A stretch of DNA of 64,000 bases from Candidatus Altimarinota bacterium (GTDB lineage: Bacteria > Patescibacteriota > Gracilibacteria > JBDHUY01): positions 8,995-72,994 of the forward strand of contig JBDHUY010000010.1 of the NCBI GenBank assembly GCA_039809385.1, read 5' to 3'. A program made the position numbers and the translations under genes. The notes below the pieces were generated by a model. It was not told the DNA's origin. It was given only the letters and a program-made list of their open reading frames with translations, and searched no databases. Shown piece after piece: positions 15,825-34,666 of the stretch (positions are counted from its first letter, which is position 1; every line of letters starts with the position of its first letter).

Positions 15825-18800
15825 CTAAAATAAAGTATCTTTCCAGCAGATCTTGCGATAAGGGCACGTTTCGCAGTTGCGGATATCGGTGGTTTTGGGA
15901 AATTCAAGTTGTTGGATTTTGCCGTATACGTCTTTCAGGATTTTTTTAAATTCTTCGAACTCTTCACTCTTGTATTCGATCAGGGTTTGCCGGAAATTGG
16001 ATCCGTCTTTTTCTGGAAAAACGAAATCCAGTACTCCTCCTACCGGATCGAGCTGTAAATCCCGGTCCAGTTCCACCAGCAGTTTATAGAATAAAAGCTG
16101 GTAAAAATAACTTTTATCACCGCGGCTGGTTTCGGTCAAGCCTTTGATATCGTTTTCGGATCGTGGTCGTCCGGTTTTGTAATCGACAATATGTATCCGT
16201 AGGGGGGAATGGCCGTTCGCCTCTACGGGATCGGCTGGTTCAATCTTATCAATAACCCCGGTCAGCGGGATACCATCAAAATAGAGCGGGACGCGGTTAT
16301 AATTGCGCTCCAGATACAAAGGTTTTGTAAATTTCCCGGCATAAAAATCATAATAGGCGCTCAAAACGCGCTTACCTTCTTTGGCCGATTCGCTAAAATC
16401 CGCTTCGGTCATCAATTCTTTTTGCAATGCTTCTGCGTAGAAGGACAATAGCATTTCTTTGCCCGGTGTAGAGACGGAATGCATTCCGTCTCTACGGGAT
16501 GCATTTTCATAATTTTTTTTCAATTCTCCAAAGAACAGTTCCAGTGCCGCATGGACCGCCGTCCCGAATTGCTGCAATTTTTCTTTGCTGCGCGGGACTT
16601 TCAATATGTGGTCGTACTGAAACTGGCGCGGACAGCGTAAATAGGCGTTTAATCCGACTGGATTCATCCGGTAATTCTTGACCAGTTCTTTCAGGAATTC
16701 TGCTTCTTTATGATCTTTATCGTGTCTTTCAGGTTCGAACAACAGCTTGATGGCTTCATCCGAACGACGCTCAAACATATCGACTTCTTCTTTTCGTAAA
16801 AATCTCTCATCGATCTCCCCGATAAACTGTGAGGGGATGGCGTTTTTCTTATCCAGCAGCGGATAGTTGTGAGCAAAACTGATCGAAATCTTGCGTTTGG
16901 CCCGCGTGAGAGCCACATAGAATAACCGTCGTTCGTCTTCGTTCACGGGGATCTCGTTCAGTTTTTGCTGGGTGAGCACATTGGGGGCGAGCGTTAACGG
17001 CTTACTTTTCTTCGGGTTGCCCCATTTCCCGTCGATACATTTGACCACAAATACATATTCGAATTCCAATCCTTTGGATTTATGCGCCGTCATCAGCCGG
17101 ACGCCCTGTTCCAGGCCTTCCATAGCGGCTTCGGGGAGTCCGATGCCTTCGGAGGCCATCAACTCGATATCTTGTAGCAAAGCAGCGAGCGATAGTTTGT
17201 GATTTTTATAATTCTCGGATTTTAAAAAGTTAAACAAGGTGTTAAGGCGATGGATCGAGCGCAGGCTATTGGTATTGAGGAAGTGGTCGATGATACCGAA
17301 CTCTCGCAGCATTTTCTCTACCAATTCGACCAGTATGACGTTGTGGCTTTCTTTCTGAAAAAAAAGAATTTTGCCGGCGATCTCTTCGATTTTTCTGGCC
17401 TCCTGAATGCCGTTTTCCGCCAGTTTCTTCTGATCCATGAGAATATCGATCATCTTTTTCTCGCCGCTTTTATGGTTATAGGTCGAGCGCGATATTTTCA
17501 TCAGATCGAGCGGGATCAGACCGAACGCTGCGTGGTGTAGTACTCGAAAAAGCAAATCCTGCTGGTCCGGATCGACTATGACCTGAAGCAGTTCGATGAC
17601 TCTCTGGATATCGTTATCGCGCAAAATATCAAACCCGCCCTCGATGTTCCAGGGAATATTTTTACGGGTAAAGGTATTGATAATATCGACGACATCCTGA
17701 TTATTGCGATAAATAATGGCTATTTCGTTGGCCGCGATTCCCTCTTCAATCAATTCCTGAATACGCGTGGCCAGGTAATAGTTTTCGATCTCGCCGCTGG
17801 AGAATTCCAGGAGGGAGAGTTTTGCATCTTCGCTCGTTATTTCTTGTGTTCCATTGTCGTTCGTGGCTTTGGTGGACATACCCCGTCCCGCCACAGACGG
17901 GACACCCCTCTCAAGAGGGGATTTTTCTGTGCCTTCTGCTTTCTCCATACTTAATTCTTCGCCTATGCCTTTGACCATATTCCCCCCCTTACCCCCCTTT
18001 ATCAAGGGGGACAAGGCAGTTTCTTCTCTTGATTCTTGATTCTTAATTCTTGATTCTGTCTGTCGACTGTCGGCTGTTAGTTGTAAACTGTCAGCTGCCC
18101 TGAACTGCTTGTCTATGGCAAACCCATAGATCGGGTTGGTAATTCGATCTTCGTTTTTTTCAATCACGCTGCCGGCGGCATCGAGGATCGTTTGGGTGCT
18201 GCGATAATTGGTGCGTAATACCACGGTGCTGATGTTCTTGAACTTGTCATTTAAATACAACATATTTTCCAGAGAAGCACCTTGGAAACGGTAGATCGAC
18301 TGGTCGTCGTCGCCCACGACGAACAGGTTTGGATTGTCGAAATAGTTGGCCAGCTGGTAGACGACGAAATTTTGGGCGCCGTTGGTATCCTGATACTCGT
18401 CGATCAGAAAATGGAAGTAGCGTTCTTGCAGATCCAGACGCAGCTCTTCGTCGGTTTTCAGTTTTTGCACCACGAACATGATCATATCTTCGTAGTCGTA
18501 GCGGCCCAAAGTTTCCAGGCGTTCCTGATAGCTATGGTAGATCAGCGCCAGTTCTTTGTTCTTTTCGAGCTTCTTGATCTCTTTGCGGTATCGTTCCCCT
18601 TGGGATCCGTTTTTGTTTAACAGACAGGTATCGTTGCTAATAGCTTGCCCGTATTCTTCAACGATCCTATCGAAATCAGACGGCGCGATACCTTCTTTTT
18701 TCAGGTCTTTCAGGCAGTCGAGGATACTTCTGACATAGAAATAAGTTTCGCGAAACGAGCGCAATTCCGTTAACGGCAGTGTATCGATGATGTCGCGCAT

Positions 18801-19181
18801 CATTTTGAACCGTTCGATATCGGTCAGGTTGGTGAAATCGCGGGTGCGGTAGGAGAATTTTTCGGGAAATTCGAGGATGATATCGTTACAGAACGAATGA
18901 AAGGTCTGAATATTGACGTAATAGCCGGTCGTGCCGATGAGTTCGATCAGCCGCTCCTTCATCGCCGCCACGCCGCTTTCGGTAAATGTCAGGGCTAGAA
19001 TGTTCTGCGGCTTTATCTCTTCATTCAATAAAATATAGGCGATCCGCATGGCCAAGATCTGTGTCTTACCGGTACCCGGCCCGGCCACCACCAACACGGG
19101 GCCGTCAAATGTGGTCACGGCGGCTCTTTGTTCGGGGTTTAAACGCGCGAAGGCTTTGTCGAAAGCAGGGGAAGATTTCAT
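15825..19181 (-). CDS. UvrD/PcrA-type SF1 helicase fused to a C-terminal PD-(D/E)XK nuclease with Fe-S cysteines
   Basis: VAGPGTGKT, IDEYQD, VGDDDQSIYRFQGA, TAHKSKGLEF, YVALTRA; YLRCP ... GVIDKI ... IVDYKTG ... CETCPYRKIC. Confidence 0.93.
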   Translation of the reverse strand: MKSSPAFDKAFARLNPEQRAAVTTFDGPVLVVAGPGTGKTQILAMRIAYILLNEEIKPQNILALTFTESGVAAMKERLIELIGTTGYYVNIQTFHSFCNDIILEFPEKFSYRTRDFTNLTDIERFKMMRDIIDTLPLTELRSFRETYFYVRSILDCLKDLKKEGIAPSDFDRIVEEYGQAISNDTCLLNKNGSQGERYRKEIKKLEKNKELALIYHSYQERLETLGRYDYEDMIMFVVQKLKTDEELRLDLQERYFHFLIDEYQDTNGAQNFVVYQLANYFDNPNLFVVGDDDQSIYRFQGASLENMLYLNDKFKNISTVVLRTNYRSTQTILDAAGSVIEKNEDRITNPIYGFAIDKQFRAADSLQLTADSRQTESRIKNQESREETALSPLIKGGKGGNMVKGIGEELSMEKAEGTEKSPLERGVPSVAGRGMSTKATNDNGTQEITSEDAKLSLLEFSSGEIENYYLATRIQELIEEGIAANEIAIIYRNNQDVVDIINTFTRKNIPWNIEGGFDILRDNDIQRVIELLQVIVDPDQQDLLFRVLHHAAFGLIPLDLMKISRSTYNHKSGEKKMIDILMDQKKLAENGIQEARKIEEIAGKILFFQKESHNVILVELVEKMLREFGIIDHFLNTNSLRSIHRLNTLFNFLKSENYKNHKLSLAALLQDIELMASEGIGLPEAAMEGLEQGVRLMTAHKSKGLEFEYVFVVKCIDGKWGNPKKSKPLTLAPNVLTQQKLNEIPVNEDERRLFYVALTRAKRKISISFAHNYPLLDKKNAIPSQFIGEIDERFLRKEEVDMFERRSDEAIKLLFEPERHDKDHKEAEFLKELVKNYRMNPVGLNAYLRCPRQFQYDHILKVPRSKEKLQQFGTAVHAALELFFGELKKNYENASRRDGMHSVSTPGKEMLLSFYAEALQKELMTEADFSESAKEGKRVLSAYYDFYAGKFTKPLYLERNYNRVPLYFDGIPLTGVIDKIEPADPVEANGHSPLRIHIVDYKTGRPRSENDIKGLTETSRGDKSYFYQLLFYKLLVELDRDLQLDPVGGVLDFVFPEKDGSNFRQTLIEYKSEEFEEFKKILKDVYGKIQQLEFPKTTDIRNCETCPYRKICWKDTLF
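16468..16495. repeat. GTAG-type perfect 28-bp palindrome inside the helicase-nuclease CDS
   Basis: gtagagacggaatg|cattccgtctctac; read in-frame as RRDGMHSVST. Confidence 0.85.
17822..18098. repeat. Composite in-frame repeat insertion in the helicase
   Basis: gtcccg..cgggac, cccctct..agagggg and ccccctt..aaggggg hairpins plus (tcttgat)n and (ctgtcnn)n 7-nt tracts. Confidence 0.75.
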
Positions 19182-19226
19182 GAATTTCTAAAATGTTGTT
19201 AAGCTCCAGCAACAGGGCCGTGCTGT

Positions 19227-19255
19227 TTGATATTTACGTAAAAGTTTATTATCAT
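19227..19255 (+). promoter_or_regulatory. Sigma70-like promoter with no downstream ORF
   Basis: TTGATA (19227-32), 17-nt spacer, TATCAT (19250-55). Confidence 0.6.
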
Positions 19256-19261
19256 GATGTC

Positions 19262-19352
19262 GGACTTGTGGGCGGTAGCCCTCGACCGACCTCATTCGAG
19301 AGTTGGTCAACAAGTTCATTAAAAAGCCAAATAGTATATATCTGGCCTTTTT
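19262..19352 (+). ncRNA. Candidate three-way-junction small RNA with terminator
   Basis: Outer stem ggacttgt/acaagttc encloses the hairpins gggc-ggta-gccc and gaccgac-ctc-attc-gag-a-gttggtc; then aaaaagcca...tggcc and a T run. Confidence 0.45.
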
Positions 19353-19498
19353 TGGAATAAACCATTATATTGATTGGGATGTAAATTTACCATGTTGAGA
19401 ATAGGGTAAAAATCAGAATTTGCATCAGAAAAAATTATGGGTATACTATAAATGTAGCGCAAGTTACCCTGTCCGCCGGAGGCGGATCCGATATCCAG

Positions 19499-19527
19499 AC
19501 CTCGCTTTTAGGAGCGGGGTTTTTTTA
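19499..19527. terminator. Terminator hairpin overlapping the NYN stop codon (T tract on +)
   Basis: acctcgctt-tta-ggagcggggt followed by a long T run. Confidence 0.7.
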
Positions 19528-20158
19528 TGCGGGTAATGTGGCTTTTGATCTTCTGTGCATTGATATAGACATCGGCTGTTTCTTTGAGCGTATGAAATAC
19601 CTGCCCTGAGGCTACAATCATGATCTTTTTATGTTTGCGCTTTAAAAATCTCGTCAGATGGGCAAAATCACTGTCTCCCGACAGGAGACAGAAGGTATCA
19701 TATTTATCCATCAAACGAATGGCGTCGACGCTGATTTCGACATCGAAGTTACTTTTGGGTATTTCAATATATTGTCCGAGAGCGTCTTCTTTTCTGGTTC
19801 TGGTTGTGTTTCCTGTAAGCTCGATTTCGTTTAAATGATGTCTTATGAACTGGATGGGCTTGGTAATTTTGATAAATCCTGATTTTTGGGCCAGGATATT
19901 GATGTGTTGTGAAGATGGCATTCTGGTATGCCAGCCGTAATAGAATCGTTTTTGAATTGAAAAAAGATCCAGAAAGGTGCCTAATTTTACAATATCAACG
20001 ATAATCCTGGAACCATCTTCCAGTGTATTGCCCTGAGCATCACGCTGATCGCGGCCAAACCAATAATTTACATTTCCAAAGTCTACAAAGGTGTAGATTT
20101 TTCCCAGTTTTGACCGGTCAATTCCCAAGCTACTTTGTTTGAAGTCCTGCAGATTCAT
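19508..20158 (-). CDS. NYN domain (LabA/DUF88, PIN-like) nuclease
   Basis: FVDFGN, KSNFDVEISVD, LLSGDSDF, LKETADVYI. Confidence 0.9.
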   Translation of the reverse strand: MNLQDFKQSSLGIDRSKLGKIYTFVDFGNVNYWFGRDQRDAQGNTLEDGSRIIVDIVKLGTFLDLFSIQKRFYYGWHTRMPSSQHINILAQKSGFIKITKPIQFIRHHLNEIELTGNTTRTRKEDALGQYIEIPKSNFDVEISVDAIRLMDKYDTFCLLSGDSDFAHLTRFLKRKHKKIMIVASGQVFHTLKETADVYINAQKIKSHITRIKKPRS

Positions 20159-20458
20159 AAGATCAGATTGTCATGATGGTACAACGTCTTGTATCCTACT
20201 CTTTTTTACGCTGCTTGAAAAGCGGAACAGTGGTTCGTTTCCTTATGGCAAAATGCTAAATAACGATATCGACAACCATTTTATATTGACATATTGTATG
20301 TGCGCGGATAGAATCTTCATCTTTATTTCCCATATGTTCAGTGTTGTATGGCAATCGGTCTTGATATGCCGGTAAGGTACGGGATGAAAGTATCTTCTGC
20401 AAAGACAGGGAATCCTTTGGACAGTTCCAAGCGAGATCTGGTATTTGAGAAGACCCAG

Positions 20459-23400
20459 ATGGATCCGGAAAAAAATGTACAAACAACGGTCCGTTTATTT
20501 GTGCAAAACGTTTTCACGCCTGGGGAATCTCACCATACGCAGCATCAACGGATTGATTGGAAAAATGTTCCTGATGAAGAACTGAAAGCGATGATCAATC
20601 AGTATATTGCTGATCATGGTCTTACTTCGGAGCAATGGCAAAGATCAAGTTGGCTTTTGGAGAATGGCCATCGTTCATTTTACAGGGCTATGTCCAAGTG
20701 GTTTGAAAAATGGGAGAAGTTTCTGGAGTTCATGGAAGTAGCACAATTTGACTGGCAAAAAATTCCCGAAGCTGAACTCAAAGCTGAGGTCGAGCAGTAT
20801 ATCAAGAATCATAATCTCTCGTATGAGCAATGGCAAAGTACAAAATGGCTTAGTAGAAAGGGCCATAATTCGTTCTATGAAGCTATGCGTCAACGTTTTC
20901 AGGGGTGGGAGAACTTTCTGGTATTCATGAGAGTGGTACAAAAGACTATTGATTGGAAGGGAGTCCCCGAAGCTGAACTCAAAGGTGAGATCGAGCGGTA
21001 TATTAAGAATAATGATCTCTCGAATGAGCAGTGGCAAAATTCAAGGTGGCTTAGTAGAAAGGGCCATAATTCGTTCTATGAAGCTATGCGTCAACGTTTT
21101 CAGGGGTGGGAGAACTTTCTGGTATTCATGAGAGTGGTACAAAAGACTATTGATTGGAAGGGAGTCCCCGAAGCTGAGCTCAAAGCTGAGGTCGCGCAGT
21201 ATATCAAGAATAATGATCTCTCGAACGAGCAGTGGCAAAATTCAAAGTGGCTTCATGAAAACGGCCATCAGTTATTCTATAAAGCTATGCGTATCCGCTT
21301 TCAGGGCTGGGAAAACTTTCTGGTCTTCATGGACATTACAAAATTTGACTGGCAAGAAGTTCCCGAAGCCGAACTCAAAGCTGAGATCAAGCGGTATATC
21401 AAGAATCATGATCTCTCGAATGAGCAATGGCAAAATTCATATTGGCTTGGTAGAAACAGCCATAGCCCATTTTACCTAGCCATGCGTACCCGCTTTCAGG
21501 GCTGGGAAAACTTTCTGGTCTTCATGGACATTACAAAATTTGACTGGCAAGAAGTTCCCGAAGCCGAACTCAAAGCTGAGATCAAGCGGTATATCAAGAA
21601 TCATGATCTCTCGAATGAGCAATGGCAAAATTCATATTGGCTTGGTAGAAACAACCATCAGTTATTTTATAAAGCCATGTTTAAACGCTTTAAAGCATGG
21701 GAAACCTTTCTCAGGTTCATGGGGATTGTAATAAAAGAACAGATTCATTGGCAGATCATTCCTGAAAATCAACTGAAAGCAACTATCCAACAATATATTC
21801 ATAACCATAAACTGACACCGGAGCAATGGCAAAATTCATATTGGCTTCGGGGAAACAGTCATAACCCATTTTACATAGCCATGCGTACCCGCTTTCAGGG
21901 GTGGGAAAACTTTCTGACGTTCATGGCAGTCACTAGCAATCCTTTGCAGAAGCTCACACGGTCTTTGACTGAAGATCCGTCTTTGCCCGAAGACAAGCAG
22001 AGAATTGAAGAATACAAAAATATCGTATCCAGCCTGGGCGAGAATACTTTGTTGCAATTTGTTTTGGCTACGAACCCCGAGCTACAAGCAAAGGCAAAAG
22101 AGGTTCGGCTGACACTCAAAAAGTGGATTGGTACAACACAAACTGCAGTCTCTTCCGTTCCTCCTATTCCCAGTTTGCCCGAAGCCCTCTTTCTACTCCT
22201 TCCCGAAGCCCGAGAGCTCGCTTTCGTCCTGCTAAGAGAATCATACTTTTCCCATTTTGAAAAGAAAGGTGAAGATGGCCTGCTGGAACTTGAACAACGT
22301 GTCTCCGAGCAACCGACTCCAACGCATCGCAGCATCTATCAACGGGTATGGGACTACTATGTTGACATCCTCGGTACAGAACCGCCACCAAACATTCGGT
22401 TGTCTCCCAGCCTCCATCAAAAAATGGGTGCTCACGAAATCCAGACCAAAAAGCGGTTTCTCATCGCCGATGATGTGGGAACCGGAAAAACTTTGATCGC
22501 TATCATGGCGAAAGAGCAAATCGAAGCACAACGCCGGAAAAAGTCTGTAGAGAAAAATGAACTCTATCGTCGCAAAAAAACACTGGTTTTATGTCCCAGC
22601 GAAATGGTCGAAACGTGGCACAAACGCTTGGGAGCCGGACAAGAAGGATACTTTCTACCCGACTCTAGCGATCTTCCCCATGTAGTCTGCGTCAACGGTT
22701 CAAAAGATCCCGCAGTATTGGAAAAGGCCGATTATATTGTTATGAACTATGACAAACTCGACCCTCACACTCTGGAGACTCTCATGCGATTACAGGATCT
22801 CGACTACCTGGTTTTGGACGAAGCGCATAATGTCAAAAACATCGACGGCAAATGGAGCCGGTACGTACGCCAACTCTCGCTCGAACACGCGAGCATCAAA
22901 GACGGCTATACCGTGATCCTCTCGGCCACACCGTTGCCCAACAAGATCCACGAAGACCTGCCGGTCATGCTGCAGATGCTCCAACCGGAAAAATATCCCG
23001 ATCTCGCGTTCCTCAAAAAACAGATCAACAACAGTAACGGGATGCTCATCCGTTCGATCCTGATGCACTCGATGCTCAGACATACCCAAACAGAAGTGTT
23101 GCATAGTTTGCCGAATCTCATTGATCCTCTGGTGCAAGGAAACGGCGGTCTGATTCGCTATGACCTGACTCCGGCCGAAAAAGCCTTGTACCAGTCAGTT
23201 CAGGAGGACGAGCACCTGAGCGGACTACAAAAACTATCAAAGCTCAATCAAATCTGTCTGGATCCCTGCTTTGTCGATTCCTCTATCGCCGAATCTTCCA
23301 AATATCGGGAATTGTCTCAAGTATTGAGCCACGATCTTACTTACACCGATAACGTGGTGGTGTTTGTCTCTCATTTCCGGGACGGAATAACCCGCGATTT

Positions 23401-25048
23401 CAAAGAAGAAGAAAAAGAAGATATGCACCTCTTAGCGAAGTTGAAACGCGACCCCGATTTTGCCGGAGTAAATTTTTACCGCATCGACGGCAAAGCCGGG
23501 AAAAACGGCGAGGGCAAAGAACTGTCCCGGGAAAATATTTTAAAAACGGTCAGAAATACTCCCCAGGGTACCAAAAACGTTATCCTGGCTACCATTGATA
23601 CCGCGAGTGAAGGGATCGATATGACATTTGCCTCGCGGGTCATTTTCCCCAATTTGCCCTATACCAAAGCCGCGTATCATCAAGCCTTGGGGCGCTTGTA
23701 TCGTCCCGGACAGACCGAGGATGTACATGCTTCGGTATTAGTAGCGAATAGTACCACCGAAGAAGGCAACTTCGTATATATCAAGACCAAAGATCTGCTG
23801 ATCCAAGAGATACTGGACGGCAAGATCATTACGGATGAGGAATGGGAAGAAATTTCACGCGATTTCAAAACGAGCACCAATAGTTTGCTTTCGTTCATGA
23901 CCAAGACTGATCACCAGAAACTCCTGTGGCTGTGGGGGAACATGGCCGGACGCGGGGCCGAGAGTTTAAAAAACTTCTTTGAACGCTACGGCGGTCAGTA
24001 TGCCAAAGAGTTTGTGCGGTTATATATGGAAACTTTTGAGACTTCCTATGGCGGCAGCAACTTTCGCTTTTTATGCCGCAATATTTTGGAACCACTCTTT
24101 CAGGAACGAGCTGATCTTCAAAAAATCGCTGATCTGGGATCCGGCCCCTTGGCACTAGCTGCCTATCTTGGCCAGGCTCATCCGGATAAAGAGATCCATG
24201 CGCTTGACTTGAACCGCTTTGCCATTGAGGCGGGCCAGAAAAATCTTGTCGACAAACAAATTCCGTTCAACGGCACCGCCGAAGTCGGCAGTTTTACCAA
24301 AACCAATTTTGAGAATGGTAGCCAAGATATGGCGATCTGTTCCTTAGCCTTTCACGCCACCCATCATCCCAACCAAGCCAAAAAAAGTGAGGAATCGGAA
24401 CGAGCTCAGGCACTGTTTGAGTTCCATCGTATCTTACGCCAAGGCGGCGTGCTCGTACTTCTCGAAAAAAAGAGCATCCTGCAGGATGAAGAGCTGATCC
24501 GCTTTGGCAATGAACTCAAAAACTTTGGATTCCGGATTATTCCGAACCTTACCGGACGGGGATACTGTGCGGATGCCGCCGAGAACGGCAGTACCAAGGA
24601 GTTTGAAAATATTTCGATCGTGTGCGAAAAAATAAGCGAGCCGGTTTTTGATAAGATTAATTTGACGCATCTGGCATTTACGAAAAAGACCAAGAAAGTT
24701 CCATCTGGCACAACTACCCAAGAGCTTCCAGTTGATCAGACGCCGAAAGAATACAAGCACCATCGATTTGAGATCAAACCGCTATTTGAGCAAGAACCAG
24801 CTGCTTCCGACAAAGAGCAACAGGAAAAAGAAAAACAACGAGCCGAACGAGAGCGTATTCACCAACTGCTTCTGACTAAAATTCAGATTCTCATTGTCAA
24901 GCAGAGTAGCTTGGAAAAAACGATTCACGAAATTCGCGAACTCGGCGGCAAAATCGTTAAAACCCGCAATAAATCGGGAAGTAAAGATTACCAGATCTGG
25001 TTTGAACATACATATCTGGGCAATCTGGAAGTGCTGATAAAAAATTAG
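20459..25048 (+). CDS. Tandem-repeat / SNF2-family ATPase / class I SAM methyltransferase fusion protein
   Basis: Seven 65-68-aa repeats; IADDVGTGKT, LVLCPS, DEAH, LSATP, SEGIDMT, QALGRLYRPGQ; IADLGSGP, HALDLN, CSLAFH, FHRILRQGG. Probable ATG at 20459. Confidence 0.88.
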   Translation: MDPEKNVQTTVRLFVQNVFTPGESHHTQHQRIDWKNVPDEELKAMINQYIADHGLTSEQWQRSSWLLENGHRSFYRAMSKWFEKWEKFLEFMEVAQFDWQKIPEAELKAEVEQYIKNHNLSYEQWQSTKWLSRKGHNSFYEAMRQRFQGWENFLVFMRVVQKTIDWKGVPEAELKGEIERYIKNNDLSNEQWQNSRWLSRKGHNSFYEAMRQRFQGWENFLVFMRVVQKTIDWKGVPEAELKAEVAQYIKNNDLSNEQWQNSKWLHENGHQLFYKAMRIRFQGWENFLVFMDITKFDWQEVPEAELKAEIKRYIKNHDLSNEQWQNSYWLGRNSHSPFYLAMRTRFQGWENFLVFMDITKFDWQEVPEAELKAEIKRYIKNHDLSNEQWQNSYWLGRNNHQLFYKAMFKRFKAWETFLRFMGIVIKEQIHWQIIPENQLKATIQQYIHNHKLTPEQWQNSYWLRGNSHNPFYIAMRTRFQGWENFLTFMAVTSNPLQKLTRSLTEDPSLPEDKQRIEEYKNIVSSLGENTLLQFVLATNPELQAKAKEVRLTLKKWIGTTQTAVSSVPPIPSLPEALFLLLPEARELAFVLLRESYFSHFEKKGEDGLLELEQRVSEQPTPTHRSIYQRVWDYYVDILGTEPPPNIRLSPSLHQKMGAHEIQTKKRFLIADDVGTGKTLIAIMAKEQIEAQRRKKSVEKNELYRRKKTLVLCPSEMVETWHKRLGAGQEGYFLPDSSDLPHVVCVNGSKDPAVLEKADYIVMNYDKLDPHTLETLMRLQDLDYLVLDEAHNVKNIDGKWSRYVRQLSLEHASIKDGYTVILSATPLPNKIHEDLPVMLQMLQPEKYPDLAFLKKQINNSNGMLIRSILMHSMLRHTQTEVLHSLPNLIDPLVQGNGGLIRYDLTPAEKALYQSVQEDEHLSGLQKLSKLNQICLDPCFVDSSIAESSKYRELSQVLSHDLTYTDNVVVFVSHFRDGITRDFKEEEKEDMHLLAKLKRDPDFAGVNFYRIDGKAGKNGEGKELSRENILKTVRNTPQGTKNVILATIDTASEGIDMTFASRVIFPNLPYTKAAYHQALGRLYRPGQTEDVHASVLVANSTTEEGNFVYIKTKDLLIQEILDGKIITDEEWEEISRDFKTSTNSLLSFMTKTDHQKLLWLWGNMAGRGAESLKNFFERYGGQYAKEFVRLYMETFETSYGGSNFRFLCRNILEPLFQERADLQKIADLGSGPLALAAYLGQAHPDKEIHALDLNRFAIEAGQKNLVDKQIPFNGTAEVGSFTKTNFENGSQDMAICSLAFHATHHPNQAKKSEESERAQALFEFHRILRQGGVLVLLEKKSILQDEELIRFGNELKNFGFRIIPNLTGRGYCADAAENGSTKEFENISIVCEKISEPVFDKINLTHLAFTKKTKKVPSGTTTQELPVDQTPKEYKHHRFEIKPLFEQEPAASDKEQQEKEKQRAERERIHQLLLTKIQILIVKQSSLEKTIHEIRELGGKIVKTRNKSGSKDYQIWFEHTYLGNLEVLIKN
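20552..21938 (+). repeat. Seven coding tandem repeats of 195-204 bp
   Basis: Consensus (I/F)DW..VPEAELKAEI..YIKNHDLS.EQWQNS.WL..N.H..FY.AMR.RFQGWENFL.FM; long identical DNA stretches between neighbouring units. Confidence 0.95.
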
Positions 25049-25079: not shown

Positions 25080-25601
25080 ATGGCAAAAAGAAAAGATGTC
25101 AATACTCCTTCATTTTCCTCTGGAGTGACCAATCATATTATTCCTAGGCAGTCAGATACAAAGGAGATTGGTTCATTACAAGAAAAGGTTCACAACGAAG
25201 TCTTGGCTGCGGTGGATTTTACCAAACCTGCCGAGGAAGTCGCCCGGCAACTAATTGGTAAGAAAATAAAAAGAGTGCTCCAAGACGGCACCACCATCGA
25301 AGCCCTTATTACCAAAGTCGTTGCTTACACCAAAGAAGATAACGAAAAAGGAAAATACAAAGCCATTCTCACAGGAGAGCCGGGAGATCTGATCGTTACT
25401 AACACGATGGGACATCTGATTATGAATATCATTACCCAGGACAGCAGCTGCATAACCCTGCAGTCAATTCAACACAATGGCAAAGCGATCGAGGGTAAAG
25501 GGAAGGTGAGTAAAGCCTTAGAGATCAAAGGGATTGGGAAGGGGCAAAAAGTGACTGGCGTGAATGTAACGCATCCGGGTGCTGTATTGACCATTGAATA
25601 G
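25080..25601 (+). CDS. Divergent 3-methylpurine DNA glycosylase (Mpg/AAG)-fold protein
   Basis: FTKPAEEVARQLIGKKI, GEPGDL, MNIIT and GKGKVSKALEI match Mpg blocks, but ETEAY is replaced by KVVAY. Confidence 0.7.
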   Translation: MAKRKDVNTPSFSSGVTNHIIPRQSDTKEIGSLQEKVHNEVLAAVDFTKPAEEVARQLIGKKIKRVLQDGTTIEALITKVVAYTKEDNEKGKYKAILTGEPGDLIVTNTMGHLIMNIITQDSSCITLQSIQHNGKAIEGKGKVSKALEIKGIGKGQKVTGVNVTHPGAVLTIE

Positions 25602-25870: not shown

Positions 25871-28231
25871 ATGCCTCTTTCTTCCACGAATAATAGCCCA
25901 CCGGAACAATCCGAAAGCGGACCACTCAAAAAAAAAGTTTCCCTGAAGGATTTGATGGATCGCTACAAAGAAACACCGCTCGGAAATGTTTCACGCCGTT
26001 TCCAGGAGGAGTTTTTCACCCCCGCCGCCGCCGCGCTTTTTACTACCTTTGCCGGAGATACGTCGCTCCGTTTTGCAGTAGTGGCAGATGAACAGATCTC
26101 AACCGCCGCCATCAACCCCAAAACCGGCCAGGTAATGATCGGAAAATCGCTGGCACAGGCCTGCCTGGAGGGTGAAAGAAAGAATGACGTCACTTTTAAT
26201 CATACCCTACTCAGATTTATCTTTGCCCATGAGATCGGCCATTATAAGGATCTGTGCCATGGAGGAGACAAGCCGATCGGATTCAGCCAGAAGCTCAAGC
26301 GGTTTCAGGAATGGAACGACCGGTTAAATCAAAAGATCTGGGATACCTGGGAAAACGACTTCGGCGCTTTTCACAAAGGCAAAGTCGAACGGGGCGAGAA
26401 CCGTGCTTGTCCGCTCCATTTTCTCTATCATGAATTTTTCAACAAACTCGACGATACCCTGGTAAACCGCAGGGCTCAAAAAGGCTTTAAAAGTCTCCGG
26501 CCGGGAAGTTTCCAATTACCCGACTTTTATGAATATACGCTGTTTCAAAGCACCTCCTACAATCGGATGAATACCCCTCTGTGCGGCCAGCTGGGCAACT
26601 ACCTGCTCCAAAAGATCGAGACCCCCCATCTGCAGATCGAAGTCGATCCGGAAGTACAGGCTGAACTGGAAGTACAGTACGACTTTAATGGCAAAAAACA
26701 GACACTCTTGCAGATACTGGCCTATCTATCCGATAAGTTTGACTCCCAATACGCCGCGATCCGCTATCCCGACAAGTATGAAAAATATTTTCTGCCCGCG
26801 TTTGAGCGGCTCCTAAAAAAAGACCGTGAATTTAATGAACGGCTGCAGGACTTTATGGAACAACTGGAGAAACAGCAAGATCAGAATGGAGAGCAACCTC
26901 AATCGGGCCAGGGTCCCGCAGGATCCCCTAATCCCTTTTCGCGCCGCTCACAGGAGATTGCGGATAAAGCGCGCGAGGCCGAGAAAAACGATCAGGGCAG
27001 AATCAAAGACCGGCAGGCAAAAAATAAAGAAGAAAGTAAAAGCGATCAGCAAAAAGCCGAGGATCAGATGAGAAAGCAGGCCGCTTCGTTTGCCGGAGAA
27101 CGAAGTCTGCCCCTGGAAAAGACACAGCGGTATTTTGAACTCAGAGCCGAGTTTGAACCCGAGATCGAAGAATTGTCCGATTTTATCGTGCATATTCTGC
27201 TGCGAAATAAAACTACTGCCGTCTCAATTCTGGAAAAACGACAGAAGTCAGGCAACCTGCTAGTGAAAAACCTGATCAAAAAATACGCCGGCATTATCAG
27301 TGGGGACAAAGAAGCCACCCGGGTATTTGAACGCAAGATCACGACCGATACCTATCGACCGCGTAACATCGGCATGATGTTTCGGATGGTGATCGACAAC
27401 TCCGGCAGTATGCGTACGCTAATGCCCGAGCTGGAAGGAGTTTTTGTCATCATCACGCACGCCATCCGGCGCGCCCAGCAGATGCTGATCCAGACATACC
27501 ACTTACCGGAAGTACGTTTGCAATCCCAGATGATCTTATTTGGAAACGCCCGGCAGGAAGGGGATCCCCATTCCGGAGCCCGTCTGATCAAGCCCGGGAG
27601 CTCTCCCGATCAGGAGGAGGGAGATTTTGACGCAGAGCTGATCCAAGCGCTCGGACATATTACCTGCAATGAAGGTACCGAGGACAGCGATGCCTGGAAA
27701 CTGATCGGTGAAGAATTATTTGATCCGGGGGAAGTAGAGGTCGAAGGGGACAATGAATCGATTTCGGCTAGTCTGGAAGTGACCGACGGCTTTACTGAGC
27801 ATCCGGAAAGAACTCGGCTGTATTTGGAAACCATTCAAGAGTTGGGAATTCATCCCCGCTGTGCCTATATCGAAAACAACCAGCCGCTGGATCAATCTTT
27901 ATCCGACCGCACCCGGAGTATTCGTGAGGAGATGGCCTCTGCCTATCAGAATCCCGCGCGCATGCAAGAACTCCAGGAGCAGCTTCGCAGCGTCGAGCAA
28001 CAATGGTATCTGCAAAACGAGCAATTGCTTGAAAACAATCCGTCTACAGAAGTGTGGGGTGATAGAATGTCGATCATGAAAGATACCCGCGATATTCTTC
28101 CCCTGGTGGAAATCATGCTGATGGAGGCAGTAAACCAGGTCGACGAGCAACTTGAACAAAATCAGCATTTTTCGCTAACCGGGCATTTCACAGAGAAGGC
28201 TCTACAAAGAGGAAAGGATGCTGCGAATTAA
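25871..28231 (+). CDS. Zincin-like metallopeptidase plus vWA domain protein
   Basis: FAHEIGH (HExxH) and FNKLDDTLVN; Q/G/E-rich linker; MIDAS DNSGS ... EGTED ... VTDG. Confidence 0.85.
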   Translation: MPLSSTNNSPPEQSESGPLKKKVSLKDLMDRYKETPLGNVSRRFQEEFFTPAAAALFTTFAGDTSLRFAVVADEQISTAAINPKTGQVMIGKSLAQACLEGERKNDVTFNHTLLRFIFAHEIGHYKDLCHGGDKPIGFSQKLKRFQEWNDRLNQKIWDTWENDFGAFHKGKVERGENRACPLHFLYHEFFNKLDDTLVNRRAQKGFKSLRPGSFQLPDFYEYTLFQSTSYNRMNTPLCGQLGNYLLQKIETPHLQIEVDPEVQAELEVQYDFNGKKQTLLQILAYLSDKFDSQYAAIRYPDKYEKYFLPAFERLLKKDREFNERLQDFMEQLEKQQDQNGEQPQSGQGPAGSPNPFSRRSQEIADKAREAEKNDQGRIKDRQAKNKEESKSDQQKAEDQMRKQAASFAGERSLPLEKTQRYFELRAEFEPEIEELSDFIVHILLRNKTTAVSILEKRQKSGNLLVKNLIKKYAGIISGDKEATRVFERKITTDTYRPRNIGMMFRMVIDNSGSMRTLMPELEGVFVIITHAIRRAQQMLIQTYHLPEVRLQSQMILFGNARQEGDPHSGARLIKPGSSPDQEEGDFDAELIQALGHITCNEGTEDSDAWKLIGEELFDPGEVEVEGDNESISASLEVTDGFTEHPERTRLYLETIQELGIHPRCAYIENNQPLDQSLSDRTRSIREEMASAYQNPARMQELQEQLRSVEQQWYLQNEQLLENNPSTEVWGDRMSIMKDTRDILPLVEIMLMEAVNQVDEQLEQNQHFSLTGHFTEKALQRGKDAAN

Positions 28232-28390: not shown

Positions 28391-31090
28391 ATGCAAACAA
28401 ACACAAACAGCAACCAGGGCGCCGAACTGATACGTGAAAATACCAGCCGTCTCCTGTCGGGACGCAAACGCGTACTGGAGCTGGCCCGGCAACTGATCGC
28501 CGGACTCACCCGCAGTGAACTGTCGGACATAATGCCGGAGATTATTAAATCCCAGACGGCAAAAGACTTCTATGAGGAATTTGGTCTGGAAAGAGCCGCG
28601 GGAACGGAAGAAGAAATGATATTCGGCGACCTCAAGGAAGAATTGGAAGTGCTCGAAACGATGGGATTTGCCGACGGAAGCCTGTTTGATCTGCAGGAAG
28701 CGGAGGAACCGGTGGATGTCGCCGCAGAAGGTGCAGTGAAAGGGCTAAATTTTAAACACTCCCAGCAATTGGACTCCCGGCTTCATCAGAGTCTGATCAA
28801 GATGGCCCGTCTGGAACGAAAAAAGAAAAAAAGCGGGTCCGAACAGAACTACCTGAATCAGCAACAAATCCCTGAACCGAGCGATATACTAAAAAGTACT
28901 GAGCCGGGGTCAGAAACCCCCGAAATATCTGTCAAACGGGCCAGTATCCGGGACAAAATGAAGACAGCGTTACAACAAAGAAAATATGACTCACCTCAGC
29001 GTTCCAGCATTTCGCCTGCCAGTCAGCGCGCCGTACGGGGAATAGACGAATATCGCGAAACAGACAGAAAGATCCGCGAAGCGGTCGATGAGAACTATTT
29101 CGACTGGATGGCCCATTATATGTTGAAACTAAACGGCCTGAGAAAAAGTCTCGCCAAGAGCGGAAAACTGGTCCTCACTCCCTATGTGGAACGGATCATC
29201 GAGGAAGTACGGGACAGTGAGACCGCCACGGGCAAGATCGCCTGCCTGAAAGGCGATCTGGGAGCCGGAAAAACCGAGATCGCTCTCCATGTCGGACGGG
29301 AACAGAACCGGAAAAATCTCCCTGCGATCAAGGAGAAGCTCGAACAAAACGGCTATACGATTCTCTCATCTTCGGATCTGAAAAAAGAGCTCGGCCAGCT
29401 GGAAGGTTCAAGGCGGGAAGAGATGGTCCGCGAGTTTGTACAAAAAGAAGGGAGCCGTATTTCCTCAATCCGAAATCTGAAGCAAAGTGAAGCCGAAAGT
29501 TATGTTCTGAACGATCCTGAACTTTTATTTCAGGCTTTTCAAAAACATACATTCAAAAATGAAAAGGTCATTGACGAGCAAACCGCCATCGAGCCAATTT
29601 TGCTCTCGGGACACAAAGAGTTTGATCCGGCCGAAATGATCGGCGGCTTCGAAATTCAGCACGAAGAACTGGATCTGAGAAAAGTTACCGAAGTCTACCG
29701 GGAAGGACTCAGAACAATCGAAGCGATACCAGGATTGGATGAGCATACGAAAAAAGAATTACAGGATCTGGCCAAAAGCAAGATTGCGAATCTGGGAGGA
29801 GTAGAGACTCACGCCTATCTGGGCAAACTATTTCAGGCCATGCAGATGGGAAAAACACTGATCATCGACGAGTTCAATGCCATTCCGCACGAAATACTGA
29901 TCATTCTCAACTTTTACATGACCCGCCGGCCCGGCGACGTGATCCAGCCACCCATTAATAATCTCCCTCCCTTCAAAGTGCAGGAAGGATTCAAGATCAT
30001 TTTCACCGGCAATATTCCCAAAGAAGGCCAGACCGGCTATGTCGGACGCCAGGCCTTGGATGCGGCCTTCCGCAATCGCTTGAACGAGATCGAAGTAGAT
30101 TATCTGCCCAATTCCCGCGATGACGATATATTTGTGAACGCGAAAGGAGAATTCGATCTTCCCAGAGAATTTCTGCCGGGTACCGACACCGGAACAAAAA
30201 CTATTGAAGAAGCAAAAAGCGAATATCTTTCGTCACTGAACAACGAATATCGAGCCACGATCCGTCACGGTGGAAAGCTGGAACTGGCCGAAGGAGGTGA
30301 GAAAAAAGTGGAAGGAAAGGAAAACGACGAATTGTTTCAGGTTCTGGTGACCTTCGGACTGCCCAAAAGTCTGGTCGGACGACTGCCAGAGAATTATTTT
30401 GCCAAAGTCTACCAGCTGGCCCGCATTGCCCGGATCATCCAGGATGCCTATTCGGGACAACTCGTCGATGAAAAGTATTACAAGGCTGTGGGGAAAAAAC
30501 CGCAGAGTTTTTTGAAACGCGGGATTGCCTCGATGCGCGATCTGACAACGATTATTCGAGCCTGGAAAGTGGACGGGTACTCACGGGAGCTCGACTATTA
30601 TGTATGGAAATACTTTATCCAAAATCTGGAAGGGACAGAACAGGCCTGGATCTACGGTTTGTTCAAAGAATTCGGCGGTTTTTTTGACGACAACAATGTC
30701 TTTCCACAGCAGGAAAAAGATATTCACCAGCTCCGGCTGGTCGGACGCATCATTACCGACCAACAAGTTCCGGATCAGAAACCAAAGCTAAAAACGTTCA
30801 GCCAACAGGAGGTTTTAGAAAATTTGTTTGGTCTGGCGCCGCTGCCAAAAGAGGATGAGCAGCAGATAATTCAAAGCGTGGAAGTGAGGGGTGAAGACCT
30901 GGAAACACAGAAACAGGAGTTGCTGGACAAGATCGATACCCTCGCAGTGTCGCTTCAGATTTTCATCGACAGGTTTGTGGTAAACGTCATGATGTCCAAC
31001 TGCAAGGATCATTGCGATATAGGAGCGCTGAAAGGTATGCTGAGCGAAACGGCACTATCGAATCTGCGCAACCGTGAATCAACAATGTGA
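28391..31090 (+). CDS. MoxR/dynein-related (AAA_5-like) AAA+ ATPase with large insertions
   Basis: Walker A GDLGAGKT, Walker B LIIDEFN, sensor-1 FTGN, arginine finger LDAAFRNR, sensor-2-like SMRDL. Confidence 0.88.
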   Translation: MQTNTNSNQGAELIRENTSRLLSGRKRVLELARQLIAGLTRSELSDIMPEIIKSQTAKDFYEEFGLERAAGTEEEMIFGDLKEELEVLETMGFADGSLFDLQEAEEPVDVAAEGAVKGLNFKHSQQLDSRLHQSLIKMARLERKKKKSGSEQNYLNQQQIPEPSDILKSTEPGSETPEISVKRASIRDKMKTALQQRKYDSPQRSSISPASQRAVRGIDEYRETDRKIREAVDENYFDWMAHYMLKLNGLRKSLAKSGKLVLTPYVERIIEEVRDSETATGKIACLKGDLGAGKTEIALHVGREQNRKNLPAIKEKLEQNGYTILSSSDLKKELGQLEGSRREEMVREFVQKEGSRISSIRNLKQSEAESYVLNDPELLFQAFQKHTFKNEKVIDEQTAIEPILLSGHKEFDPAEMIGGFEIQHEELDLRKVTEVYREGLRTIEAIPGLDEHTKKELQDLAKSKIANLGGVETHAYLGKLFQAMQMGKTLIIDEFNAIPHEILIILNFYMTRRPGDVIQPPINNLPPFKVQEGFKIIFTGNIPKEGQTGYVGRQALDAAFRNRLNEIEVDYLPNSRDDDIFVNAKGEFDLPREFLPGTDTGTKTIEEAKSEYLSSLNNEYRATIRHGGKLELAEGGEKKVEGKENDELFQVLVTFGLPKSLVGRLPENYFAKVYQLARIARIIQDAYSGQLVDEKYYKAVGKKPQSFLKRGIASMRDLTTIIRAWKVDGYSRELDYYVWKYFIQNLEGTEQAWIYGLFKEFGGFFDDNNVFPQQEKDIHQLRLVGRIITDQQVPDQKPKLKTFSQQEVLENLFGLAPLPKEDEQQIIQSVEVRGEDLETQKQELLDKIDTLAVSLQIFIDRFVVNVMMSNCKDHCDIGALKGMLSETALSNLRNRESTM

Positions 31091-31131
31091 CACAAAAAAA
31101 TGTCAGATTTTAATTGGTATGTATCACTCCC

Positions 31132-32550: not shown

Positions 32551-32567
32551 ATTTAAAACAACACTCC

Positions 32568-32687
32568 CCTGAGATTAGGAATCTTAAGGAACTGATTCGA
32601 CTTTATCTTGAGGAGAATGATTTTATTGCGGTGAAAAAAAAGCAAAATAGAAAACTATTTAGTCCGACGTTCAAGATATCTTTTTGA
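32568..32687 (+). pseudogene. Orphan C-terminal fragment of a deleted LRR gene
   Basis: Translates PEIRNLKELIRLYLEENDFIAVKKKQNRKLFSPTFKISF*, matching the last LRR and cap of LRR2 and LRR4; no start codon, out of frame with LRR1. Confidence 0.8.
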
Positions 32688-32695
32688 CTACCCTC

Positions 32696-33550
32696 ATGCA
32701 CCTGTGCCAAGAACTACAACAAGGCTTGCTTGAGATCAAACAGATCAGCGAAAAACTGAATAAACTTCGAAATGAACTGAGAAATATTCAGATGGTTCAA
32801 GAGTTGAAAGAAAAAGAGTCGCAACTGGACCAATCGATCTCTCAATGTGAATCGAAACAAAAGGAGTTGGAAGAGGAAAAATACAACTTTCCAGCCGAAG
32901 TATTACGCATGTTTGGACTTGAGGTAAATGAAGAGAATCTGAAGAAGGTTCAACTGGATGAAGGAGGGTACTGTGTCGGTCTTGACCTATCTGGACAAAA
33001 AATACAAACGATTCCGGCAGAGATTCAGTACTTACGGAGACTGACTTCTCTTGATCTTTCTTACAATCAACTGACAGAGCTGCCCCCCGAGATTGGGAAT
33101 TTGTCGAAACTGGAGAATCTTAATCTCTATCATAACCAACTGAACCTTCTCCCATCAGAGATTGGGTACCTCAGGGAATTGACCTTACTTAGTCTCGGAA
33201 TTAACCAACTGAAAGTTCTGCCACCTGAGATTGGGAACTTACCGAATCTGGAAGGGCTTGATCTTAATGATAATCAACTAAAGGCTCTGCCACCTGAGAT
33301 TGGGAACTTACTGAATCTGAAAGAGCTTTTTCTTGATAACAACCAACTGAAAGTTCTGCCACCTGAGATTGGGAACTTACCGAATCTGGAAAAACTTTTA
33401 CTTAATGGCAATCAACTGAAGGATCTACCATCAGAGATTGGGAAACTCGAGAAACTATTTGAACTGAATCTCTATGGGAATTCTCTAATTGAAGTAGAGA
33501 AAGAGAAAATTAAAAAACTATTTGACACTCCCGTCAATATATACGTTTGA
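32696..33550 (+). CDS. Leucine-rich repeat protein 2
   Basis: MHLCQELQQGLLEIKQ start; about 7 LRRs; cap EKEKIKKLF. Confidence 0.93.
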   Translation: MHLCQELQQGLLEIKQISEKLNKLRNELRNIQMVQELKEKESQLDQSISQCESKQKELEEEKYNFPAEVLRMFGLEVNEENLKKVQLDEGGYCVGLDLSGQKIQTIPAEIQYLRRLTSLDLSYNQLTELPPEIGNLSKLENLNLYHNQLNLLPSEIGYLRELTLLSLGINQLKVLPPEIGNLPNLEGLDLNDNQLKALPPEIGNLLNLKELFLDNNQLKVLPPEIGNLPNLEKLLLNGNQLKDLPSEIGKLEKLFELNLYGNSLIEVEKEKIKKLFDTPVNIYV

Positions 33551-33560
33551 TTATCCCCCC

Positions 33561-34655: not shown

Positions 34656-34666
34656 CCAGATATCCC

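Follow-up and report, generated by a model that had tools for sequence, protein, structure and literature searches.

The 64,000-nucleotide stretch of a Candidatus Altimarinota bacterium contig analysed here (the window) encodes P0001, a protein in which seven tandem repeats stand in front of an SNF2-type motor and an S-adenosylmethionine (SAM)-dependent methyltransferase (MTase). Proteins compared with this SNF2-MTase protein carry P numbers of the same form, and genomes and loci carry G and L codes. The reading we favour, with about even confidence, makes P0001 an ATP-coupled MTase that an accessory module, the array, tethers to nucleic acid; this would be a variant of the methylase-helicase dyad, and in it both the binding and the coupling are inferred. 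The reading is built on what can be seen directly in the domains and motifs of P0001, in a chain of homology that leads from its repeat to the Pfam family PF18780, in the distribution of its family and in the mosaic structure of its DNA.

An SNF2 motor and an atypical methyltransferase behind a repeat array

A first-pass annotation, made from the letters alone, had proposed a protein of three parts, a repeat array, an intact SNF2 motor and an atypical class I MTase of non-DNA type, and this architecture was borne out. Outside the array, the gene is laid out as follows.

20348 to 25048, plus strand: open reading frame (ORF) of P0001, 1566 amino acids (aa), an open frame from its first ATG
21938 to 22447, plus strand: linker, aa 531-700, conserved with the SNF2-MTase family from about aa 550
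22448 to 23197, plus strand: SNF2-related N-lobe, aa 701-950, PF00176 at 73.9 bits (cut-off 24.9)
23300 to 23710, plus strand: Helicase_C lobe, aa 985-1121, PF00271 at 41.4 bits (cut-off 23.5)
23855 to 24667, plus strand: family-conserved MTase module, aa 1170-1440, with its Pfam core at aa 1260-1371 (24125-24460)
24668 to 25048, plus strand: C-terminal tail, basic (isoelectric point, pI, 9.5), aa 1441-1566 and the stop codon

As expected of an SNF2-family ATPase, both lobes score above their Pfam cut-offs and motifs I, II, III and VI are present (GTGKT at 711, DEAH at 824, SATP at 859 and GRLYRPGQ at 1115), in keeping with the earlier statement that all SNF2 motifs are intact. Across a 12-member family alignment, G-x-G-K, D-E and Q..R..R are invariant.

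The MTase module carries the marks of a class I SAM-dependent enzyme: Pfam matches above cut-off over aa 1260-1371 (PF08241 Methyltransf_11, 35.2 bits, cut-off 21.2; PF13649 Methyltransf_25, 35.1 bits, cut-off 27), a glycine-rich motif I (DLGSGP at 1262) and an acidic residue after strand 2. Module residues D93, G97 and D118 are invariant in 11 family members. DNA methylases are recognised by (D/N/S)PP(Y/F/W) when they modify N6 of adenine or N4 of cytosine, and by PCQ plus ENV when they modify C5 of cytosine. A motif scan found no [DNS]PP[YFWH], PCQ or ENV anywhere in P0001, and among 12 family members a single one has [DNS]PP[YFWH], outside the MTase module. The first-pass description of an MTase with DLGSG, lacking the NPPY/DPPY and PC motifs and not a classical DNA MTase, was therefore correct.

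The family alignment of the module keeps D-x-G/A-S/C-G-P at motif I, the acidic residue after strand 2 and E-x-N-R-x-L-x-x-G-G ... G-F, and has an N-C/I-A/S-L-A segment at the place of (D/N/S)PP(Y/F/W) in DNA amino-methylases; the stretch of roughly 90 aa that precedes motif I is specific to this SNF2-MTase family. Compared with the PDB, the family profile found generic class I enzymes (3mgg_A was best, E 5.3e-9, and 3dlc_A reached 2.3e-7), and its C-terminal half aligned with 2zfu_A, a Methyltransf_8-type chain deposited as 'Cerebral protein 1' (E 2e-6, including E-x-N-R-V-L-K-x-G-G ... G-F). Methyltransf_11 is matched by 10 of 11 family members, Methyltransf_25 by 7 and Methyltransf_8 by 4. 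By these comparisons the module looks like Methyltransf_11/25, with a C-terminal half that looks Rrp8-like. It shares the class I Rossmann fold of SAM MTases with these families and with 2zfu, but all of the matches are weak and generic, and the substrate is not readable from them: DNA, RNA and protein all appear possible, with a canonical DNA base methylase the least likely kind of enzyme.

Seven repeats that vary along most of their length

The array occupies aa 68-530 (DNA 20549-21937). For the analysis of mosaicism, each unit was split into a head (codons 1-36), a patch (codons 37-51, where variation peaks) and a tail (codons 52-65).

20549 to 20743, plus strand: repeat 1, aa 68-132, which diverges most (51-55% aa identity with the other six)
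20744 to 20944, plus strand: repeat 2, aa 133-199
20945 to 21145, plus strand: repeat 3, aa 200-266, same patch and tail as repeat 2 (100%), head 93% identical to that of repeat 4
21146 to 21340, plus strand: repeat 4, aa 267-331
21341 to 21535, plus strand: repeat 5, aa 332-396, head the same as in repeat 6, patch 87% identical to that of repeat 7, tail the same as in repeat 4
21536 to 21739, plus strand: repeat 6, aa 397-464, head the same as in repeat 5, patch closest to that of repeat 4 (73%), tail with no nearest relative
21740 to 21937, plus strand: repeat 7, aa 465-530

The seven repeats of 65-68 aa claimed in the first-pass annotation are real, and all seven strings that it quoted match letter for letter; from repeat 1 to repeat 7, the units measure 65, 67, 67, 65, 65, 68 and 66 aa. 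Pairwise identity among them is 51-82% in aa and 64-89% in nucleotides (nt). Tandem Repeats Finder describes the array with a period of 201, 5.1 copies and a score of 1164, and a second repeat finder counts 7 copies. Searched with a seven-repeat profile, the organism's own 1.87-Mb genome returned each unit (E 6e-37 to 3e-41) and nothing beyond the seven.

The units had also been described as a fixed scaffold with clustered variable positions, which holds in so far as codons 37-51 are the most variable stretch. Variation is not confined there, however: only 25 of the 68 alignment columns are invariant across the seven repeats and 43 are variable. Summed over all pairs, the ratio of nonsynonymous to synonymous differences (pN/pS) is 0.55 in the patch and 0.39 elsewhere, or 0.62 and 0.36 when repeat 1 is left out. 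The array is under purifying selection that is somewhat relaxed in the patch, and diversifying selection is not seen.

Modelled alone from a 14-row alignment, repeat 3 gave a mean local confidence (pLDDT) of 93.9 and a global score (pTM) of 0.78, with five short helices at positions 9-22, 27-30, 33-38, 42-51 and 55-61. The 463-aa array, modelled from an 11-row alignment, gave a pLDDT of 79.5 and a pTM of 0.38. The modules are thus predicted confidently and their mutual arrangement is not; the models predict no rigid packing, and a low pTM is no proof of flexibility. A Foldseek comparison of the array with the PDB gave a best E of 0.11 and TM scores of at most 0.22, with no match at E < 0.1 to transcription activator-like effector (TALE), PUF or PPR proteins; for one repeat, the best E was 6.5 in the PDB and 1.2 in BFVD.

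A chain of homology leads to PF18780

The first-pass annotation had noted a likeness to the homing-endonuclease-associated helical repeat. Compared directly with PF18780, the array reached 7.1 bits (E 9.5; cut-off 26) and single repeats gave no match, so the likeness rests on a profile chain. Run against 1.84 billion representative proteins, the seven-repeat profile found only 30 at E <= 0.001, 16 of them at E <= 1e-10. We scanned 20 of the 29 non-self matches with Pfam (leaving out P0023, P0024, P0026, P0030, P0034, P0036, P0038, P0039 and P0042), and six passed the PF18780 cut-off of 26 bits: P0033 (61.8), P0031 (51.7), P0035 (48.6), P0043 (43.7), P0040 (28.7) and P0044 (27.8). Another four of the 20 have matches below the threshold. 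The stronger profile matches hold 1-6 units with the pattern W-x-s-S-x-W-L-x-x-N-G-x-x-x-L-Y-x-A-I ... R-F-x-s-W-x-x-F-L-x-F-M-G; in homologous arrays of other proteins, the 1-7 units are far less identical to one another than in P0001.

With hhalign, the P0001 units aligned with those of the proteins that pass PF18780 at 97.6% probability (E 3.7e-12) and with a closer group at 99.5%; the comparison sets had been picked by the same repeat profile, which makes this corroboration and not a fully independent test. The nearest ESM Atlas clusters by language-model features are PF18780 clusters (0.79 and 0.78), which serve as leads only. Because the repeat profile finds proteins that pass the PF18780 threshold, and hhalign joins their units to ours, we conclude that the P0001 repeat is a divergent branch of PF18780, a relative that falls below the threshold for Pfam membership. 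The likeness noted in the first-pass annotation holds.

The proteins that carry related repeats suggest what the repeat may do. An SNF2 domain is present in 6 of the 20 scanned proteins and P0045 has a ResIII/DEAD helicase N-terminus, so that 7 of the 20 are SNF2 or SF2 helicases. The N-terminus of P0046 is GIY-YIG-like by eye only, its Pfam scan being empty. Many other relatives are stand-alone proteins of 200-490 aa that have no enzyme domain.

Several further observations concern these searches. Matches of the repeats to the Pfam families Phage_tudor, U-box, DEK_C, Cas3_C and UL24 were set aside as chance, being short, partial and inflated by the summing of seven copies. P0039, one of the 30 profile matches, is a low-complexity false match over profile positions 9-33 only. 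Several of the stand-alone repeat proteins P0020-P0024, P0026, P0030 and P0037 share a tail of about 80 aa (G-I-Q-x-E-x-Q-A-R-x-L-L-x-x-E-I-x-R-L-R ... A-V-A-D-F) that is absent from P0001. P0019, a metagenomic protein of 1167 aa in which the Pfam scan finds no enzymatic domain, has two arrays, about seven units of roughly 90 aa (L-P-N-P-P ... G-K-T-H-E-E-A-K) followed by six P0001-type units. One repeat-bearing match is labelled as coming from Candidatus Peribacteraceae. P0001 itself has the precomputed Pfam label PF26291.1, which may describe the repeat or the linker and is not listed for the other proteins returned by the homologue searches, P0054 included.

The SNF2-methyltransferase core and its distribution

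A six-frame search of 401 genomes of the same class with aa 685-1566 as the query (E <= 1e-8) matched 23 genomes, our own included; the match reaches the MTase module in 19 of the 400 others. Sixteen of these loci, from 16 genomes, were examined, and their ORFs of 1120-1905 aa are collinear with aa 549-1523 of P0001 (phmmer E 1.8e-68 to 1.7e-16); P0048 is 28% identical by BLASTP over aa 703-1476 (E 7e-61). The genomes of relatives within the class measure 0.7-2.0 Mb. Judged by these alignments, the SNF2-MTase core is a stand-alone, uncharacterised gene family in this bacterial class, and the fusion defines an uncharacterised family in about one in twenty of the sampled genomes of a class of ultra-small bacteria. 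Across a sample of 401 genomes of the phylum, the family's MTase module occurs in six: our own, three more of the same class and two of another class. Word-based searches with the SNF2-MTase part and with the array returned no close relative of similar length; they scored about 8000 candidates, were not exhaustive and missed the homologues that the six-frame search found.

The P0001 type of repeat occurs in 4 of the 401 class genomes, our own included, and in two of the other three it sits on a protein of the P0027 type. P0027 represents a second SNF2 subfamily; its identity to P0001 is about 30% over the repeats and about 21% over the SNF2 region. With a core-family profile, we also found a distant homologue, P0054, a 1381-aa protein labelled as coming from a Candidatus Aenigmarchaeota archaeon metagenome-assembled genome (E 4.4e-111), the only one of 62 non-self matches with an MTase among its precomputed domains. 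Its Pfam scan gives PF18780 (46.7 bits), SNF2 (105.2 bits), Helicase_C and Methyltransf_11, and its repeat units are of the canonical PF18780 kind, undetected by the P0001 repeat profiles. By sequence, then, the combination of repeat, SNF2 motor and MTase is rare and exists at least twice with different repeat branches, and repeats of the PF18780 superfamily have joined SNF2 motors at least three times.

A side observation concerns the genetic code of two genomes with SNF2-MTase homologues, G144 and G113, which belong to the same family of the class. In-frame TGA codons lie inside otherwise good matches, 11 of them at locus L022 (G144:C2) and 6-8 at locus L025 (G113:C1), which suggests that TGA is read as sense in both. 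The P0001 gene has no in-frame TGA. The genome sizes within the class, the TGA usage and the Candidatus Peribacteraceae label on one repeat-bearing match fit a bacterium of the candidate-phyla-radiation type.

The array is a DNA mosaic

At the DNA level, the array contains two pairs of exact duplicates. The copies of each pair stand one period apart and are offset from the register of the protein unit.

20846 to 20976 and 21047 to 21177, plus strand: two exact 131-nt copies at a spacing of 201 nt
21295 to 21458 and 21490 to 21653, plus strand: two exact 164-nt copies at a spacing of 195 nt, with the 31-nt patch of repeat 5, which differs, between them

Which unit is nearest to a given one depends on the segment compared. 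Among the heads, repeats 5 and 6 are identical and repeats 3 and 4 agree at 93%; among the patches, repeats 2 and 3 are identical, repeats 5 and 7 agree at 87% and repeats 4 and 6 at 73% nt; among the tails, repeats 2 and 3 are identical, as are repeats 4 and 5, and that of repeat 6 is 67-69% nt identical to the others. One staggered tandem duplication explains repeat 3. The patch of repeat 5 is unlike those of both neighbouring units although it is flanked on each side by the same 164 nt, which is most simply explained by a conversion tract that came from a repeat-7-like donor. The recombinational shuffling proposed in the first-pass annotation was thus right in substance, although its example fits only in part: repeat 6, described as a mosaic of repeats 5 and 4, has the head of repeat 5 and a patch nearest to repeat 4, whereas its tail is nearest to no other unit. 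Such mosaicism is generally how tandem repeats behave.

Duplicates of this kind raise the question of whether the printed array is partly a product of assembly, with a true unit number or order that differs from seven. We consider this improbable on the evidence from public runs, which was examined as contigs and not as raw reads. The exact 131- and 164-nt duplicates stand one period apart and are as long as or longer than an assembler's words, and the contigs of run X1 break at every one of them. The seven X1 pieces nevertheless tile the array in the printed order without conflict, the printed path being the only one that uses each unique patch once, and the depths of the 131-nt piece (9.7) and the 164-nt piece (6.8), against 3.7-5.2 in the unique flanks, are what two copies of each would give. 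Run X2, which comes from a different sample of that study, has a single 1578-nt contig that joins 21052 to 21478 with 29 other letters between them; these are the start of the repeat 4 patch, so that a hybrid unit stands at the joint, and the array is 396 nt, or two units, shorter. This short form may be either a real five-unit allele or itself an assembly collapse. Contigs of run X5 cover parts of the stretch only, and run X9 has none.

A multivalent tether as the favoured role of the array

In the mechanism that we propose, the SNF2 motor would bind and translocate on, or remodel, duplex nucleic acid or nucleoprotein, and its action would give the fused MTase access to its target. The core in P0001 would have gained an N-terminal string of seven five-helix modules serving as a multivalent tether, which would raise the affinity of the enzyme for nucleic acid, most likely DNA, or place the enzyme on it. 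The modules would hold no base-by-base code, and the array would grow, shrink and be patched by unequal recombination and gene conversion between its own units. That the repeats bind nucleic acid is suggested by their partners (SNF2 and other helicases), by the GIY-YIG-like N-terminus seen by eye and by the family name, and coupling of the ATPase to methylation would follow the logic of the dyad. The repeated joining of such repeats to SNF2 motors is the main argument that the repeat serves the motor, and the argument that it binds nucleic acid is one of association only.

Several results weigh against the tether. None of the 16 core homologues has a repeat unit by three repeat profiles at E <= 1; the array is therefore an accessory that the core can do without. 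In charge, it is no more than mildly basic (pI 8.8, net charge +4 over 463 aa), with three of the seven units acidic. No neighbour cluster is common to more than two of the 16 loci, which leaves the gene without pathway context. Finally, the MTase resembles small-molecule, protein and RNA MTases rather than DNA methylases, and the analogy with the dyad may therefore fail at the substrate.

The first-pass annotation had gone further and proposed a TALE-like modular code, in which units read one or more bases through the patch, recombination resets the target and the translocase and the MTase go where the array directs them. The units are indeed in tandem with a fixed period and a most variable stretch at codons 37-51, and the repeat is related to one found on homing endonucleases, enzymes that need long targets. 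In repeats 4-6, identical scaffolds of 164 nt surround a 31-nt patch that differs, unit segments differ in their nearest relatives, and the array is two units shorter in a contig of another sample. Against a code, however, identity between the units reaches only 51-82%, with 43 of 68 columns variable, pN/pS is below 1 both in the patch (0.55) and in the rest (0.39), and the array model (pTM 0.38, in itself no proof of flexibility) predicts no continuous superhelix and has no Foldseek match at E < 0.1 to TALE, PUF or PPR proteins. Homologous arrays elsewhere, with 1-7 units of far lower mutual identity, and a core family mostly devoid of arrays (0 of 16 homologues) argue in the same direction. 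These comparisons do not support a reprogrammable array, and we regard a TALE-like code as very improbable. We would give a similarly slim chance to the wider idea that the modules are a new kind of modular nucleic-acid reader, in which the patch at codons 37-51 contacts short DNA and recombination retargets a non-canonical ATP-driven MTase; were it true, a candidate-phyla-radiation bacterium would possess, in P0001, an epigenetic writer that is naturally reprogrammable. A sequence-specific, modular array would interest protein engineers, but the evidence points to an ordinary multivalent tether.

An alternative of another kind is that the modules serve protein-protein contacts or act as a scaffold, docking for example on RNA polymerase, on a nucleoid protein or on a factor of a host cell, so that P0001 would be a RapA-like remodeller whose MTase modifies protein or RNA. 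We judge this unlikely. The MTase groups with Methyltransf_11/25, its C-terminal half matches 2zfu (E 2e-6) and 4 of 11 members match Methyltransf_8, the array is near neutral in charge, and many relatives of the repeat stand alone at 200-490 aa with no enzyme domain. NCBIfam models point the same way, with RapA at E 2.6e-11 and a 'pilus expression-regulating Snf2' model at 80.9 bits, yet these matches are all far below their cut-offs (1100 for the latter), as is that to DrmD (50.2 bits against 610); a literature search found nothing on an Snf2 helicase and pilus expression. The fused partners of the repeat are nucleic-acid enzymes, with SNF2 or SF2 helicases in 7 of 20 and the GIY-YIG-like N-terminus of P0046 noted by eye, and the Pfam family name ties the repeat to HNH endonucleases, all of which speaks against a scaffold role.

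If one unit's ligand were learned, a whole set of 'homing endonuclease associated' repeats could be annotated, and a new small nucleic-acid-binding fold could come to light. The repeat is a well-folding (as modelled), structurally unmatched branch of PF18780 that recurs on two SNF2 subfamilies and on other helicases.

Gene start, neighbourhood and habitat

The in-frame alternative starts of P0001 are M1, M7, M13 and M38, the ATG at 20459 being residue 38 and internal; any of the four may be the true start. A promoter-like site ends 34 nt before the first ATG.

20286 to 20314, plus strand: sigma-70-type promoter-like site, TTGACA-17-TAGAAT, 11 of 12 positions, a consensus match only

The gene lies among chromosomal genes for 6-phosphogluconate dehydrogenase, glucose-6-phosphate isomerase, an amino-acid kinase with a PUA domain and a pyridine nucleotide-disulphide oxidoreductase. 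None of the window genes at 9-42 kb recurs beside the gene in the 16 other loci, save one unrelated pair. Upstream and divergently transcribed (window 15825-20158, minus strand) are genes for a 1118-aa UvrD-helicase and PD-(D/E)XK nuclease protein with AddA/Cas4-like ends and for a 216-aa NYN-domain protein. A 173-aa ORF (25080-25601, plus strand) follows 32 nt downstream and matches the first 83 of 181 model positions of methylpurine-DNA glycosylase PF02245 (32.2 bits, cut-off 27); it is a short or truncated relative of alkylpurine glycosylases that has no counterpart beside the homologues in the 16 loci. Further on are a 786-aa protein (25871-28231), an 899-aa protein with a weak AAA_5/GvpN-like match (28391-31090) and four consecutive genes for leucine-rich-repeat proteins of 478, 288, 377 and 375 aa (31114-35794, plus strand). 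A second, unrelated helicase-type helical repeat protein of the window (6889-8559, minus strand; 556 aa) has about three tandem 'Helicase associated' (HA) units (PF03457, 30.6 bits) in its C-terminal half and no helicase domain.

This setting bears on the possibility that P0001 is not a housekeeping enzyme but a component of a conflict system, a 'polyvalent' defence or anti-defence protein of a mobile element like the DarB-type dyads. The family is patchy (23 of 401 class genomes, with the MTase module in 6 of 401 phylum genomes) and its neighbourhoods vary; the neighbours in the window include the NYN nuclease-like protein, the UvrD and PD-(D/E)XK protein and the AAA_5 ATPase; and the dyad is well known in phages and plasmids (PMC5512222). 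The best family-level match of the linker and SNF2 region is the phage helicase family phrog_62 (E 2.1e-49, aa 535-1158), and the conserved part of the linker, from about aa 550, falls inside it. Phage genomes, however, match the SNF2 core only (122 records, at most 25% identity) and gave no match to the MTase or to the repeat array. No integrase, transposase or phage structural gene was found among 11 window ORFs searched with Pfam (13709-35794) and six neighbours searched with PHROGs, the GC content of the gene (0.42-0.48) is within the window's range and housekeeping genes are close by. PADLOC found only partial SNF2 matches on P0001 (HmaA, DrmD and DpdE; the best was HmaA, E 2.6e-12, aa 1061-1160), and no partner gene of the DISARM, Hma or Dpd systems among seven neighbours. 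NCBIfam and PHROGs searches of neighbours likewise revealed no partners from defence systems. On balance, a conflict-system role seems rather improbable to us, and the accessory tether on a chromosomally encoded enzyme is the reading we retain. Membership in DISARM (through DrmD), Hma (HmaA) or Dpd (DpdE) was rejected, the matches being partial, to the C-lobe or core, with no partner genes among those neighbours. Of the seven neighbours themselves, five had no PADLOC match, the NYN protein matched NYN/HEC-09 models and the UvrD protein matched GajB/RTasHel-type helicase models.

The stretch occurs in metagenomes from activated sludge and wastewater. At least half of its sampled words are present in four runs of one study, and 7-32% in eight runs from five other studies; no RNA run is among those listed.

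Comparison with known systems

TALE units are about 34 aa long, nearly identical save for two residues, and form one continuous superhelix. The P0001 array resembles them as a set of tandem helical units N-terminal of an effector domain, with recombination among the units, but its units are 65-68 aa long, 51-82% identical, variable over most columns and modelled as separate modules, with little confidence in how these are placed relative to one another.

Like the HNH_repeat of PF18780, the P0001 repeat is a tandem helical unit of about 55-68 aa with the core s-S-x-W-L-x-x-N-G ... F-G/x-x-W-x-x-F, and in both cases the repeats are attached to nucleic-acid enzymes. The P0001 unit differs in being longer, with an extra conserved N-terminal helix (D-W-x-x-V-P-E-A-E-L-K), and in ending F-L-x-F-M where the PF18780 unit ends A-L-x-x-A-G. 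Our literature search found no published structure or function for PF18780, which one paper lists among repeat families lacking a known structure. As for SNF2 and methyltransferase proteins in Peregrinibacteria, the text of a preprint mentions SNF2 domains in general terms, and supplementary tables may list such proteins.

The closest functional model is the methylase-helicase dyad. As described in PMC5512222, a SWI2/SNF2 ATPase and a DNA adenine methylase occur as one polypeptide or as neighbours in phages, plasmids and conjugative elements, DarB being the archetype, and ATP-driven translocation is proposed to give the methylase access. P0001 likewise has an SNF2-type motor and a SAM MTase in one polypeptide. 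In contrast to the dyad's DNA adenine methylase, however, its MTase is of the Methyltransf_11/25 kind, has no [DNS]PP[YFWH] and stands C-terminal of the motor. Its gene has chromosomal surroundings in which no mobile-element gene was detected, and phage genomes match the SNF2 core only.

Dnmt5 of fungi and green algae combines a chromodomain, a C5 methylase, a RING finger and an SNF2-type ATPase (10.1101/149385), and its ATPase step is essential for methylation (10.1101/2020.01.05.895227). It shares with P0001 the presence of a targeting or reader domain, an MTase and an SNF2-type ATPase in one protein, a working analogy and not a kinship: no sequence relationship was seen beyond the SNF2 superfamily. 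Dnmt5 differs in its C5 cytosine methylase, its chromodomain and RING finger, and an MTase that is N-terminal of SNF2. Coupling of an SNF2 motor to methylation is thus already known from the phage and plasmid dyads and from Dnmt5, and what P0001 adds is an MTase of non-DNA-methylase type. By analogy, P0001 fits the logic of a targeting module, a motor and an MTase, and differs from these systems in the kind of MTase, the order of the domains and the nature of the targeting module.

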